Assembly: GCF_057098645.1 (NCBI RefSeq) | Contig: NZ_JBXSPU010000003.1 | Length of the DNA: 64,000 nt | Source: a plasmid | Direction: 5' to 3' (one strand) | Shown: positions 18,001 through 24,000 of the stretch, piece after piece | Layout of the letters: every line of letters begins with the position of its first letter | Numbering within the stretch: the first letter of the stretch is position 1 | Made by a program: the position numbers

Positions 18001-21000
18001 AATACTTTAGGAAAAATCTGTACCCGTTTTAACACCTATACATACATCGTGCAAACAAAGAACAGTAAACGGGGCCTAAACCACCTTTTTTTAGTGGTTT
18101 ACCTAACCAAAATTAATTTATCCAAAATCGTAACTGGTTCGACCTGAATCAACCCACGCGAATTTTAATGATTTCTTAGAACTGGCTCTATAATTCTTCA
18201 AACTGGCTTAACTGGAGATGTGACAACGAGGGATTCATTTAGTACATGAAACCGGTTTACCATTCCCCCTCACCTGTTAATAATATACCAAAAAAAAGCC
18301 AGCTGGTAAGCTGACTTTTTATTAATAGATAACTCAATCTAATCAATTGATATTACTATACTTACTTCGCAAGATTTGCGAGGTTTGCATTGGCCTTTTT
18401 CTTCGGCTTCCTTGTCACACCTTGGATTTGCGCATGTTCACTCAGCACCGTGTTTTCGCTTTGTGAGGCGCTAACAGCAGCAGAACCATGACTAGTATTT
18501 AAACCTGAATCATTCTTTTTTGCGCTCTCAATCGGCGTTAAAATCTCTAAAGTCTCAGGTTTGGGATTTACAGTCAGTTCTTTAGGTATTAATTCCAGCC
18601 GCTGATCCCTTACCCTCTCTGCCTTTAATGTTTCACTGACATCAGATTGACTAGTAGTTGAAAAAGTTGCCTTAGAAAAATCACAGCCATTAATCATTGA
18701 AAATAATTCATTGAATTTCGAATCAAGCATAAAGCTTATTTGTTCTTTCAAATTTTCATTGTTTAATTTGTCTTTATTAAATTCATCATTAAAAAATCGA
18801 TTTAGATCAGCAGCTGTTAATCTCTCATTCAGTCCATTAATAAAACTAGATAACTCGGGGAAGAGATTATTTAGCACTAACCCCGTAGTGATTGCAGATC
18901 TTATTAGAGAAATCTGCTCGCCACGATGTGTTAGGGCATTTTTTTTCAAAAAATTATATGCATACGGAGATTGTCGTTCCGATAACCAAAACGCACTAAT
19001 CTGAATACGATCGTTTTCCTTCTCAGATTTTTTAGTCATAAAACTCTCCCCTTTGCAAAACCATCATCATGCAAAACCATCATCATGCAAAAACAGTATC
19101 TGCGATAGCCAGTGAAAGTGCGAATTGCGGATTATCAACCATGATGATTTTCGATTTGTCAAAATGTTTACGAACTGCCGGTTCAATCAGGTAAGAACCT
19201 CCACCAACAAGGAAAACATTATGCGGCCGTTCTTCCACTTGAGTGACTGCTTTAATCACTTTTTCTTGAAGTTGCGCCACAGCCCCATTAACAGCATTGA
19301 ACACGCCGTCAAGATCTTCCGGGGACACCTTGAGCGAGGCTTTGTTTTCACGATTATCGACTAGGTGATGAATATAGGCGTTACTTGCATTCAGCTTTGC
19401 AGAATCCAAATAACGACGGATTTCATCATATACGATTGAGCAACCAATACGGTCAAAACCCCTGACACTGGAGATCTGTTCCAGCTGACCTGTAATGCTT
19501 GCAACATCAAGTGTTGTCCCACCTAAATCGATAACTAGGCTTGATTCAAAAGATTCAATTGATTCGATTTCATCAGCACGCGTTACCGCTGGAAGGGATT
19601 CCGGGAAAACGGTAACTGAAACAACATTAAATGAAACACGTTTACCATCAATATAACGCTCCACCGGCTTCATCAGGTTGTCTTTTTTTCGTTGGATGTT
19701 TTCATTATTGGTTTCACCCAGAGCGGTATAAAACTGACTGAGTGGCAAAGTTACGTAGAGATGAACATCCTGTGGCATTAGACCTGAGGAATGTAGAGCA
19801 TGGTGAACATTAAGACGACTGATTTCATCGTACTGATGCGCAACGTCGGTAGTTTCTAAAGCATTGCTTGATTCGCTGTGGTGCGAGAATCGTTGAAGAC
19901 CATCAATTAGATAATTGAATGGAATAAGTCCGTCATGGCTTACCCGGAAATCTGCAACGAAACTATTTTGAGTCAATAAAGGTACAAGGTCACCTTGATT
20001 GTTAGTGCAAACCAGTTTTGCCGCTTTACTACCATCATCAATAACAACTTTGAGTGTCTCAAGTTCAGTAGAGTTTGATTCAGCCACAGCCAGTTTTGTT
20101 TTTGCTAATTCAGTCATGCAGAAACCCTCGTATTGGTTTATTTAGCCCACCACTTTTGTTATGGAATTTATACACCAATGGTTGCTTTAGGTCAACATTA
20201 AACGGGACAAAACACTAACGTAAGTCCTTGTTAAAAAAGAATCCTTCAGTTTTAATCCAGATACAACCCTAGATTCATGTACACCTGAGCAACACACGCA
20301 AAAACTATATTTTGCTCAGCGTTTTTATACCAAAAATAAAACAACTGAGGTGCATTACAGTTGATACGGCTCGGAAACCGAAAAATGATTTCTAGCTCCA
20401 TTTTGGACACTCACAAAAATTACCCCTCTTATCGAAAAAATTGATGACTTTCATCCGGTAGTATTAATGCAATTTCAGAAAGAGGCATTTATGGCATCCG
20501 AGCACGTCCAGACAATTGATCTGACTAATTTTTCAGGAAGGGTTTTCTTTCTGGCAGACCCTCATGGTCATTATTCGACGCTATGTAACCTTATCCATTC
20601 GATATCAGAACCTGATGAGGAGTTGATCGTTTTCTCCACAGGAAATCTCTTCGATTATGGACCTGAGCCTATGGAGTTAATGACAGCGATCAACACAGGG
20701 ATTTTTGACGGCCGTTCTGTTCGTGTGTTCTCAGCTGCCGGGGCCGGAGAAGAGATGCTGAAAAAGCTCTTACCCATAAATAAAGACCGCAGGACTTATT
20801 ATCCAAGCACATTTCTTAATGAACGGTGGTGTGCAAGAGGCGGGCGATGGCATAAACAAATTAACCGCAACTATCTTGAAGAGGAAATCTGCAAACTGCT
20901 CTCCACCCAGCTGGCTACTGTGATGAAGGTGCTTTTTAAAGGCAATATTTCTATAGGTATTTGCCCATCCGATTACACAGACATACGGCAGGGCTTCAAC

Positions 21001-24000
21001 AATACATATAACGCCCTCCTCGCTTTTAATCAGGCAAATGTGAATATTTTTCAGAGTCAGTTTCTATACGGCATGGATCACGCAGTCAGGCCAGTGAATG
21101 TCAGCGATGTAAACCTCGTAGTATTGGGTCGGAATCCAGTTAACAGCATCAGAAAGGCCCATGGGCTACCGCTGACTAACTTACCGGTGTTAGCGCCAGT
21201 GATATAAGACGGTAATTCACCATTTGGATTGTCCGCTCCACCCAACATGTTGTTTCCTTAAGGTTCTCACACCAAAAAGGACATCAACATGCTGAGCAGA
21301 GAGGACTTTTACATGATAAAGCAAATGCGCCAGCAGGGCGCGTACATTGTCGATATTGCGACTCAGATTGGTTGCTCTGAACGAACGGTCAGACGTTACC
21401 TCAAATACCCTGAACCGCCAGCCAGAAAAACCCGCCACAAAATGGTTAAGCTGAAACCGTTTATGGATTACATCGACATGCGCCTGGCAGAGAATGTCTG
21501 GAATAGCGAGGTTATCTTCGCGGAGATTAAGGCAATGGGCTATACGGGCGGACGTTCCATGCTGCGTTACTACATCCAGCCCAAACGTAAAATGCGTCCG
21601 TCAAAAAGAACAGTTCGCTTCGAAACTCAGCCCGGATACCAGCTCCAGCACGACTGGGGCGAAGTTGAGGTGGAAGTTGCCGGGCAACGGTGCAAAGTTA
21701 ACTTTGCGGTTAATACGCTGGGGTTCTCCCGCCGCTTTCATGTCTTCGCTGCCCCAAAACAGGATGCTGAGCATACCTACGAATCACTGGTTCGCGCCTT
21801 CCGCTACTTCGGTGGTTGTGTGAAAACGGTGCTGGTTGATAACCAGAAGGCTGCGGTGCTGAAGAATAACAACGGGAAAGTCGTGTTCAACTCCGGATTC
21901 CTGTTGCTGGCTGACCACTATAACTTCCTGCCACGGGCATGCCGTCCACGCAGGGCCAGAACAAAAGGTAAGGTTGAGCGGATGGTGAAATACCTCAAGG
22001 AGAACTTCTTCGTCCGGTACCGCAGGTTCGACAGCTTCACTCATGTCAATCAACAACTGGAGCAATGGATAGCCGATGTGGCTGACAAACGGGAGCTTCG
22101 TCAGTTCAAAGAAACGCCGGAACAGCGCTTCGCGCTGGAGCAGGAACATCTGCAGCCGTTACCCGATACGGACTTCGATACCAGTTACTTCGACATCCGC
22201 CATGTGTCCTGGGACAGCTATATCGAGGTTGGTGGTAATCGTTACAGCGTTCCCGAAGCGCTGTGTGGTCAGCCGGTATCGATACGAATATCGCTGGATG
22301 ACGAGTTGCGGATCTACAGTAATGAGAAACTGGTGGCCTCACATCGCCTCTGTTCGGCATCGTCTGGCTGGCAGACAGTGCCGGAGCATCACGCCCCGCT
22401 CTGGCAGCAGGTCAGTCAGGTGGAACATCGGCCACTGAGTACCTATGAGGAGCTGTTGTGATGCATGAGCTGGAAGTCCTGCTGAGTCGCCTGAAAATGG
22501 AGCATCTGAGTTATCACGTTGAAAGCCTGCTGGAACAGGCAGCTAAAAAAGAGCTGAACTACCGGGAGTTCCTGTGCATGGCGCTACAGCAGGAATGGAA
22601 CGGCAGGCATCAGCGGGGTATGGAGTCCAGGCTGAAGCAGGCTCGTCTGCCGTGGGTCAAAACGCTGGAGCAGTTCGACTTTACCTTCCAGCCGGGCATC
22701 GACCGTAAGGTTGTTCGGGAACTGGCTGGTCTGGCGTTCGTGGAGCGCAGCGAAAACGTGATCCTGCTGGGACCTCCTGGTGTAGGAAAAACGCATCTGG
22801 CCATAGCTCTTGGCGTGAAAGCGGTGGATGCGGGACATCGGGTACTGTTTATGCCACTGGACAGACTGATCGCGACACTGATGAAAGCGAAACAGGAAAA
22901 CCGGCTGGAGCGTCAGCTACAGCAACTGAGTTATGCCCGGGTGTTGATCCTGGATGAAATAGGCTATCTGCCGATGAACAGAGAGGAAGCCAGCCTGTTC
23001 TTCCGGCTACTGAACCGTCGATATGAAAAAGCGAGCATCATACTGACGTCAAACAAAGGGTTCGCAGACTGGGGAGAAATGTTCGGAGATCACGTGCTGG
23101 CAACAGCGATCCTGGATCGGCTGCTACATCACTCAACCACGCTGAATATCAAAGGAGAGAGTTACCGGTTAAAAGAGAAACGTAAAGCTGGAGTGCTGAC
23201 CAAAAACACAACGCCAATCAGTGATGATGAAATGGTGAAAAGCGGACAGCATCAGTAACGAAAGTATTTTAGCGGGCATGAAAATGGCAAATAACGGTCA
23301 AACATCGTGGCGTTGACACCGGTACTCATAGGAAACTGCCTCCACATCAATACAGGTTCTCTGTACATGTCAGAAATCAGTAGCCCAGCACTACTGGCAC
23401 CAGGTATTCCGCCTACTACAGTTCCGGCAATAACACTGGTCGAGTTGATCCTGGCATCTACACCGACCCTGATTTGCCACCAAATGATCCTGAATAAAAA
23501 CGGTATTTACACACAAAACACTGCACCACTTAACCTGGATTCAAATGATAATAATATAGAGGCCACATTATAATGCTTAAATTAGAACTGATAATTTTGC
23601 CGTTGCTGGCATTTTTAGGTCCATCCAACATTACAAATGCATCGACTAAAACCCCGATACCGTCGTCCCAGCTATCTGATGCCAAAACTGGGGTTAACTA
23701 TGAATTTATTACTATTGCTGCAAATTACGTCAACGGAATGTGGCTTGTTGATGGTCGACAAAGACCAGTAATTAAAACAAGCATGACTAAGCGTAACTAT
23801 CTTCAGATTGAAAACGACTCTGCTTCAACTCCTTTAAATCTTGTAATACCCAAAATTGAATTTTCCATCATTGCAAAAAATGGCGTGTTTATATCAAAAT
23901 TTATCTCCCTTGATGAAGATGCATCCGGGAAACGAATTCTCTGGTTAGAACCTGGTTCCAGCATGACAATTTCATTCGTCAATGATCTATCCAGTACCCC

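Follow-up and report, generated by a model that had tools for sequence, protein, structure and literature searches.

Genetic context of the trhO locus

The stretch of DNA analysed here (64,000 nucleotides of a plasmid contig, hereafter the window) represents the Tra2/partition region of a conjugative IncHI1 resistance plasmid of the R27 type. Within it, the Z operon lies between parM (R0014; 19083–20117, minus strand), which is divergent from trhO and marks the left boundary of the locus, and parB (R0019; 25499–26506, minus strand), which marks the right one. The first gene of the operon, trhO (R0015), is in two parts on the plus strand (20491–21187, counted from its probable true start, and 23323–23573), separated by an insertion sequence. 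It is followed on the same strand by eexB (R0016; 23573–24412), which encodes a 279-aa exclusion protein, is named here after the supplement of PMC7366339 and has an ATG overlapping the trhO stop codon (TAATG); by R0017 (24405–24926), which encodes a 173-aa lipoprotein with an LLVTGC lipobox; and by the operon's last gene, trhZ (R0018; 24923–25315; 130 aa). This gene order is that of R27, given in the same supplement as ParR, ParM, R0015 trhO ('phosphodiesterase'), R0016 eexB, R0017 lipoprotein, R0018 trhZ, parB and parA (PMC7366339). According to a synteny comparison, the four-gene Z operon adjoins parM also in relatives, down to 23% identity. In PMC7366339, the Z operon is described as the entry-exclusion system. 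The plasmid is of a kind known from livestock E. coli and has lnu(G) as well.

A complete IS21 element

The insertion sequence is a complete copy (2131 bp; 21188–23318, plus strand) of IS21, the type element of its family and the one found on the IncP-1alpha plasmids R68/RP4/pBS228; it is present as a single copy in the window. Compared with our reference, the IS21 copy on the IncP-1alpha plasmid pBS228 (51191–53321), it showed 98.639% nucleotide identity over 2131/2131 bp without gaps, at a threshold of at least 95%. The element ends in TG...CA, and its terminal inverted repeats, TGTTAGCGCCA on the left (21188–21198) and TGGCGTTGACA on the right (23308–23318; both given on the plus strand), are imperfect, matching at 9/11 positions. 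Directly outside them lie the two copies of a 4-bp target-site duplication, CCGG (21184–21187 and 23319–23322), a tetranucleotide that R27 has only once at this site. The element contains istA (21289–22461, plus strand), encoding a 390-aa transposase with HTH, rve (DDE) and Mu-transposase C-terminal domains, and istB (22461–23258, plus strand), encoding a 265-aa AAA+ helper ATPase, the ATG of which overlaps the istA stop codon by 1 nt. The two products scored 285 bits with NF033546 (transpos_IS21, cut-off 160) and 302 bits with NF038214 (IS21_help_AAA, cut-off 200), respectively, and also matched PF00665, PF22483 and PF01695.

The pBS228 copy shares the length of 2131 bp, the sizes of IstA and IstB (99.7% and 100% amino acid identity, respectively), the 1-nt gene overlap and the TGT...ACA termini, and it is likewise flanked by a 4-bp duplication, there ACGT. 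The two copies differ by 29 nucleotide substitutions, one of which changes the left inverted repeat (TGTTAG versus TGTCAG). The window's own variant is the one that circulates in E. coli and E. fergusonii, where 100% identical copies were found in plasmids and chromosomes, labelled by PGAP as 'IS21-like element IS21 family'.

The first-pass annotation had placed an IS100-like element next to a metallophosphoesterase-like open reading frame (ORF). An IS21-family element with istA and istB does lie there; the label IS100-like holds at the family level only. IS100 of Y. pestis also has istA and istB, encoding a DDE transposase and an AAA+ helper, but its copy on pPCP1 encodes an IstA of 340 aa and an IstB of 260 aa, the amino acid identities with the window are only 34% (IstA) and 48% (IstB), and there is almost no nucleotide similarity, the sole match longer than 44 nt being a 268-nt stretch at 67%. 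Identity with IS100 was thus rejected. The boundaries proposed at about 21231 and 23320 were likewise replaced by those at 21188 and 23318.

IS21 splits trhO and creates a chimeric ORF

The metallophosphoesterase-like ORF starts with ATG and comprises 246 aa (20467–21207, plus strand), as had been noted. It had been thought to end 23 bp before the insertion sequence, whereas it in fact reaches 20 nt into the left end of IS21: it is a chimera of trhO codons 1–240, one further native base and these 20 nt. Its tail reads ...LTNLP-VLAPVI*, in which codons 241–242 are unchanged only by coincidence and codons 243–246 and the stop codon are IS sequence. The element thus supplies the final four codons together with the stop codon; the first-pass annotation had suspected that the insertion might have altered the C-terminus. 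The true start of trhO is probably at 20491, judging from an AAGAGG 5 nt upstream and from the homologues, all of which begin at the same Met. Counted from there, native TrhO has 315 aa and the chimeric product 238 aa; counted from the ATG at 20467, the native protein has 323 aa.

The reading frame of 315/323 aa is broken after codon 240, and the orphaned 3′ part (23323–23573, plus strand) holds codons 241–323 and the stop. These 83 codons encode the LHINTGS strand, the TLVEL strand and a C-terminal extension, so that the truncated TrhO is missing the extension as well as the final beta-strands in the core of the phosphoesterase sandwich. When the element and one CCGG copy were removed, the rejoined trhO matched that of R27 at 972/972 nt (323 aa), and the IS-removed sequence was 100% identical to R27 and pHCM1 over 1052 nt. 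The perfect 4-bp duplication and the identical empty site in R27 demonstrate that IS21 disrupts trhO, one of the two possibilities that the first-pass annotation had raised. One complete IS21 would have entered the gene by the usual IstA/IstB cut-and-paste transposition, with duplication of the 4-bp target CCGG upon entry. We are confident that IS21 inside trhO, the first Z-operon gene of this IncHI1 R27-type plasmid, is an ordinary gene knock-out.

Predicted consequences for the Z operon

The truncated TrhO product would be non-functional, and the effect of the insertion may extend beyond trhO itself. The 2.1-kb insert would uncouple the translation of eexB from that of trhO and would cut off eexB, R0017 and trhZ from the Z promoter, which depends on TrhR/TrhY; lower expression of the exclusion genes, a lower conjugation frequency and weaker entry exclusion would therefore be expected. 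A polar effect of IS21 on the exclusion genes is thus possible, while plasmid maintenance is expected to be unaffected. A consensus promoter/terminator scan of positions 20100–23700 returned counts that were not above those of shuffled sequence, and it is therefore uninformative on the Z promoter or on polarity. The same scan found no plus-strand terminator-like site between 21188 and 23598, so that eexB, R0017 and trhZ may still be reached by read-through, either from istAB or from the Z promoter.

Such read-through is one way in which the insertion could be of little consequence, with trhO dispensable and the three downstream genes expressed either by read-through or from an outward promoter carried by the element. 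In addition to the lack of a terminator-like site, the orientation of the IS genes, which is that of the Z operon, fits this reading, as does the outward-facing –35 element at the right end of IS21. On the other hand, the TAATG overlap that couples eexB to trhO is gone, and trhO is uninterrupted in 222/222 matching PLSDB plasmids and has invariant motifs across its family, which argues for purifying selection. Both trhO and trhZ are moreover credited with raising transfer frequency in a review citing Lawley 2003. An inconsequential insertion thus seems doubtful to us, and we prefer to regard the allele as a knock-out with predicted effects on transfer and exclusion.

TrhO has a phosphoesterase fold and lacks most of the catalytic residues

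The 246-aa ORF matched Pfam Metallophos (PF00149) with 24.3 bits, just above the gathering threshold of 21.5. In hhalign, TrhO aligned with lambda phosphatase at 94% probability over residues 17–257, and its best Foldseek match in the PDB was 1g5b (E = 7e-7), found with an AF2 model that was built from a 14-sequence alignment and serves for fold assignment only (pLDDT 60, with the loops of motifs II and III below 50). Fold and motif order are common to TrhO, lambda phosphatase (NinI, 1G5B) and the E. coli PrpA/PrpB-type phosphatases, which places TrhO, as a divergent protein, in the lambda-phosphatase/PrpA branch of the metallophosphoesterases. It differs from these enzymes by an inserted segment of about 20 aa following the INTGS motif and by about 40 additional residues that extend the C-terminus, and it scored only 24 bits against the 332-bit cut-off of the PrpB-type equivalog model (PRK09968). 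With phmmer, uracil-DNA glycosylase was matched weakly (E about 0.2), which we attribute to chance.

The ORF has the motif DPHG, and it reads GNLFDYG where the canonical motif is GDxxDRG and AGAGE where it is GNHE. In lambda phosphatase numbering, the substitutions in TrhO are D49N, R53Y, N75A, H76G, H139P/S, R162M, H186R and D202N; 7/9 catalytic or metal-binding residues are replaced, and all the residues substituted in the TrhO clade are kept by its canonical relatives (residue table). Motif I, DxH (lambda D20 and H22), is retained in the IncHI1 members: D31 is invariant, and H33 is present in these members and is Tyr in those of about 54–65% identity. Motif II, GDxxDR (Asp49, Arg53), is absent, the corresponding GNLFDY having invariant N60 and Y64, and motif III, GNH[DE] (Asn75, His76), is absent as well, its counterpart GAGE having invariant A93 and G94. 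The M2 histidines (His139, His186) and the Asp202 of IDTG are replaced by P167 (P/S/A across the family), R222 and N250. Altogether, TrhO has lost the second metal site completely and the phosphate-binding residues as well, and the residues now in their place do not vary among 14 sequences of 54–100% identity.

The same substitutions occur in the orthologues that lack the insertion, and the degeneracy was therefore not caused by IS21. The TrhO family is small and IncH-restricted, and its motif degeneracy is ancestral and strictly conserved. The suggestion of a pseudo-enzyme, put forward in the first-pass annotation as the alternative to a disrupted gene, therefore applies to the intact protein, which is most likely a pseudo-phosphatase. 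Since both the second metal site and the residues for phosphate binding are invariantly replaced, TrhO would serve the IncH transfer apparatus as a scaffold or binding protein without catalytic activity rather than as a binuclear phosphatase. Such a role is known for Vps29, which is non-catalytic. Vps29-type scaffolds combine the metallophosphoesterase fold with degenerate metal ligands, and Vps29 is among the fold matches of TrhO; the two have no specific sequence relationship, and the analogy extends to the mode of action only.

Alternatively, intact TrhO could be catalytically active as a phosphoesterase whose site is unconventional and perhaps mononuclear, in which case the insertion would remove an enzymatic step of IncHI conjugation. 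R27 annotations call the protein a phosphodiesterase or metallophosphoesterase; a single metal ion might yet be coordinated by D31, H33 and N60, with D63 as a further candidate ligand in the IncHI1 proteins; and the residues around the former active site are strictly conserved, which shows continuing selection on the pocket. Nevertheless, all the M2 ligands (N75, H139 and H186), together with the phosphate-binding and catalytic residues R53 and H76, are replaced by A, P/S, R, Y and G, which are unfit for these roles, and even the motif I histidine gives way to Tyr in the more distant members. The low score with the PrpB-type model points the same way. In the lambda-like phosphatase of CthPnkp, every equivalent residue is essential, equivalent substitutions abolish activity, and it is not regained with conservative swaps, for instance of Asn for Asp (PMC3675462). 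We consider an active enzyme unlikely and, on balance and with modest confidence, favour TrhO as a long-kept, catalytically dead leader of an IncH-type exclusion/transfer operon, which has the lambda-phosphatase fold and would serve in binding or regulation through its remodelled former active-site pocket; the IS21 allele would then be a natural knock-out, showing that the plasmid can be maintained without TrhO.

Status of the insertion allele and implications

IS21 and trhO are both already known, and only this insertion allele is unrecorded. The insertion was absent from PLSDB plasmids and complete RefSeq E. coli genomes when the 3.4-kb region in full and an 801-nt left-junction probe were used as queries, and the chimeric protein, in its 238-aa and 246-aa forms, had no record in exact-sequence look-ups. 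An assembly artefact, in which a repeated IS21 copy was collapsed or misplaced, might leave junctions that occur in none of the databases searched, and many E. coli genomes contain several IS21 copies (matching places per genome, counting partial matches: median 2, maximum 19). However, not a base of the element is missing, and the perfect 4-bp direct repeat on either side of it copies a sequence that occurs once in the empty site; this is a true transposition signature that a misjoin would not yield, and we regard an artefact as very improbable. Practically no credence is left for the 246-aa ORF as a native, complete plasmid pseudo-enzyme next to which the element landed: it has a start and a stop and passes the Pfam threshold unaided, but IS21 homology begins inside it at 21188, the R27 empty site yields a 323-aa ORF, no truncated gene product is on record, and all 13 orthologue clusters are 313–325 aa long, with C-terminal 83 residues that are encoded downstream of the element in the window and none sharing the C-terminus of the ORF.

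For annotation, the 246-aa ORF is thus to be read as trhO interrupted by IS21 rather than as a stand-alone metallophosphoesterase, and the element is not IS100. TrhO, although annotated as a phosphodiesterase, lacks the defining residues of such enzymes and can be considered a bacterial pseudo-phosphatase candidate within a conjugation system. The predicted weakening of conjugation and of the exclusion of related plasmids would bear on the spread of this plasmid lineage.

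Identity and boundaries of the insertion sequence

The 246-aa Metallophos-like ORF lies at 20467–21207, as the first-pass annotation had placed it, and is followed by a 390-aa ORF (21289–22461) encoding the IstA transposase of the IS21 family and a 265/266-aa ORF (22458/22461–23258) encoding the IstB helper ATPase, both assigned by Pfam and NCBIfam. The ends of the element were placed by a megablast of 20200–23600 against 72,556 plasmids, in which matches to thousands of IS copies start at ~21185–21188 and end at ~23318–23320; the segment 21188–23318 (2131 bp) has end-to-end 100% matches in many E. 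coli records. Its termini (TGTTAGCGCCA... on the left, ...TGGCGTTGACA on the right) pair as an imperfect inverted repeat of 11 bp and show the TG...CA ends characteristic of DDE elements, CCGG is found on either side, and the window holds a single copy. The left end had previously been put at ~21231, 43 bp too far in, and the ORF was thought to stop 23 bp before the IS; instead, the last 20 nt of the ORF, stop codon included, already belong to the IS.

The description of the element as IS100-like holds for its IS21-family istA/istB genes and fails for IS100 itself. IS100 of Yersinia pestis pPCP1 (istA and istB products of 340 and 260 aa) has almost no nucleotide similarity to the window IS, with protein identities of 34% for IstA and 48% for IstB, so that identity was rejected and the likeness is limited to the common family. 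On the other hand, the element matches IS21 of pBS228 at 98.6% identity over all 2131 bp with no gap, and the IstA and IstB proteins are 99.7% and 100% identical; the pBS228 copy is also flanked by a 4-bp duplication, ACGT. pBS228 is an IncP-1alpha plasmid related to the RP4/R68 group, the plasmids that served to define IS21. Because of the ungapped match and the protein identities, the element is assigned by sequence to IS21 itself, in a variant circulating in E. coli and E. fergusonii.

Interruption of trhO

Removing the IS and one CCGG in silico joins 20467–21187 to 23323–23573 into a 323-aa ORF. The reconstructed sequence is 100% identical to the IncHI1 plasmid R27 and to pHCM1 over 1052 nt, the rejoined gene equals that of R27 at 972/972 nt, and the gene is uninterrupted in all 222 PLSDB plasmids matching the reconstruction; in R27 it is annotated as a 323-aa 'metallophosphoesterase' (WP_001160355.1). 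Positions 1 to ~58,600 of R27 align collinearly with the window at ~99–99.9% identity. In the R27 transcriptome numbering, R0013 is ParR-like, R0014 ParM-like, R0015 trhO (Z operon, 'phosphodiesterase'), R0016 eexB (exclusion protein), R0017 a lipoprotein gene (Z), R0018 trhZ (Z), R0019 parB and R0020 parA (PMC7366339 supplement). Since the R0013–R0020 gene order, identical in the window and R27, is the published one, the interrupted gene is identified by its position as trhO, promoter-proximal in a four-gene operon. The Z operon is an entry-exclusion system activated by TrhR/TrhY (PMC7366339). According to a review that refers to Lawley et al. 2003, transfer frequency is increased by trhO and trhZ, and EexA and EexB are named as the R27 exclusion proteins in PMC11493245, with reference to Gunton 2008.

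Residues 1–240 of the chimeric ORF are native; APVI and the stop codon are IS-derived, and V241 and L242 agree with the native protein by coincidence. Neither half of trhO carries any other change, which suggests that the insertion is probably recent. Searches of PLSDB, the complete RefSeq E. coli genomes and a 15-billion-protein collection found no other copy of the junction or of the chimeric protein. The annotated start (ATG 20467) is not preceded by a ribosome-binding site. Because all homologues start at the second Met (ATG 20491), which has AAGAGG upstream, native TrhO is probably 315 aa rather than 323 aa, and its truncated form 238 aa; residue numbers here follow the 323-aa form.

Degenerate phosphatase motifs in the TrhO family

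The 246-aa ORF scores 24.3 bits against the calcineurin-like phosphoesterase Pfam family (gathering threshold 21.5). Among 5.8 billion proteins, only 13 related clusters were found (54–100% identity, all 313–325 aa), and a profile search over 1.84 billion cluster representatives added just a few full-length relatives at greater distance before reaching ordinary lambda/PrpA-like phosphatases. Profile alignment to lambda phosphatase spans the whole fold (residues 17–257, 94% probability), and the lambda enzyme (PDB 1G5B) is the best structural match of an AF2 model of moderate quality (pLDDT 60).

Three of the lambda residues are retained in TrhO: D20 as the invariant D31, H22 as H33 (Tyr in distant members) and D52 as D63. 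The others are replaced, namely D49 by N60, R53 by Y64, N75 by A93, H76 by G94, H139 by P167 (P, S or A in the family), R162 by M, H186 by R222 and D202 by N250, and canonical relatives in the same alignment keep all of these lambda residues. The degeneracy first noticed in GNLFDYG is thus genuine, with N60 and Y64 invariant in the family, and the replacement motifs GNLFDYGPEP, AGAGE, GRNPVNSIR and LHINTGS do not vary across it. Work on CthPnkp, which has a lambda-like phosphatase domain, found every residue assigned as an M1 ligand, an M2 ligand or a phosphate contact to be essential; activity was not rescued by conservative substitutions such as Asp to Asn and His to Asn or Gln (PMC3675462). 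By analogy, we infer that TrhO is unable to act as a canonical binuclear phosphoesterase. The alignments indicate that the former active-site pocket is under strong selection and, because this is so despite the lost catalytic residues, a binding or scaffold role would fit. They likewise indicate that the motif degeneracy predates the IS and was not caused by it. Of the two readings originally offered, a pseudo-enzyme or an IS-disrupted gene, both hold in part: the gene is split in this plasmid, and the intact protein is pseudo-enzyme-like.

The relatives examined come from Photorhabdus (78% identity), an IncHI2-like Salmonella contig (72%) and Logan contigs (54%, 29% and 23%). In every one, the TrhO-like gene is the first of an operon of three or four genes, divergent from parM-parR and htd/RSP genes and followed downstream by parB-parA or trhC/traV. 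Because this position recurs throughout, TrhO is a lineage-specific part of IncH-type transfer regions, with conserved synteny. The relatives at 29% and 23% identity lie on IncH-like elements, at 7001–7927 of contig L011 and 7001–7900 of contig L012, in the order RSP-like giant protein, htd genes, ParR/ParM, TrhO-like gene, two or three small genes and TraC/TraV; their degenerate motif sets are unlike each other. In the residue alignment, one distant TrhO-like protein (P0016) keeps DLHG but has NLFDN, and another (P0018) has lost even the first Asp.

Other differences and repeats relative to R27

A 4.1-kb element with the lincosamide resistance gene lnu(G) (45216–49304, ends approximate) is absent from R27. 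Its ends are GGGTATCCGG... and ...CCGTATACCC, and an 8-bp direct repeat, ATTATTTT, lies on either side of it; R27 has a single copy of this 8-mer (42667–42674). In PLSDB, 75 plasmids carry 80% or more of the 4.5-kb query; the top matches listed are 100% identical and include ~190–240-kb plasmids from pig/pork E. coli and from Klebsiella. Upstream of parA are two tandem arrays, of a 52-bp unit (23.6 copies, 28020–29266) and a 54-bp unit (7.6 copies, 30068–30476), whose units have the core TAAGGGGGTTAAATGCCACG in common; both arrays are also present in R27, the alignment of the two plasmids being fragmented there, and they may serve in partition or incompatibility. In R27 an IS30 copy (51028–52248) interrupts an Ig-like-domain gene; this copy is missing at window 57672/57673, and the gene is therefore uninterrupted in the window.

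Predicted consequences of the insertion

Truncation takes away the LHINTGS strand, the TLVEL strand (counterpart of the last beta-strand of lambda phosphatase) and a C-terminal extension of ~40 aa, and because of these losses a folded product is unlikely. The trhO stop overlaps the eexB start (TAATG) in the native arrangement; the insertion moves eexB-R0017-trhZ 2.1 kb further from the Z promoter and would abolish this translational coupling. A consensus scan, uninformative in itself, found no + strand terminator inside the IS, and partial read-through into eexB-R0017-trhZ is possible. An 88-aa GTG-start ORF (23307–23573) begins in the right end of IS21, in frame with the orphaned 3′ part of trhO, and stops where eexB starts; its translation, if any, could partially restore coupling to eexB. 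Transfer and exclusion would be expected to decrease, with replication and partition unaffected.

Overall, an ordinary, probably recent IS21 insertion has inactivated a conjugation gene that already has a name, in a plasmid family that is well known; what is of some mild interest is that the loss of catalytic residues is conserved in TrhO.
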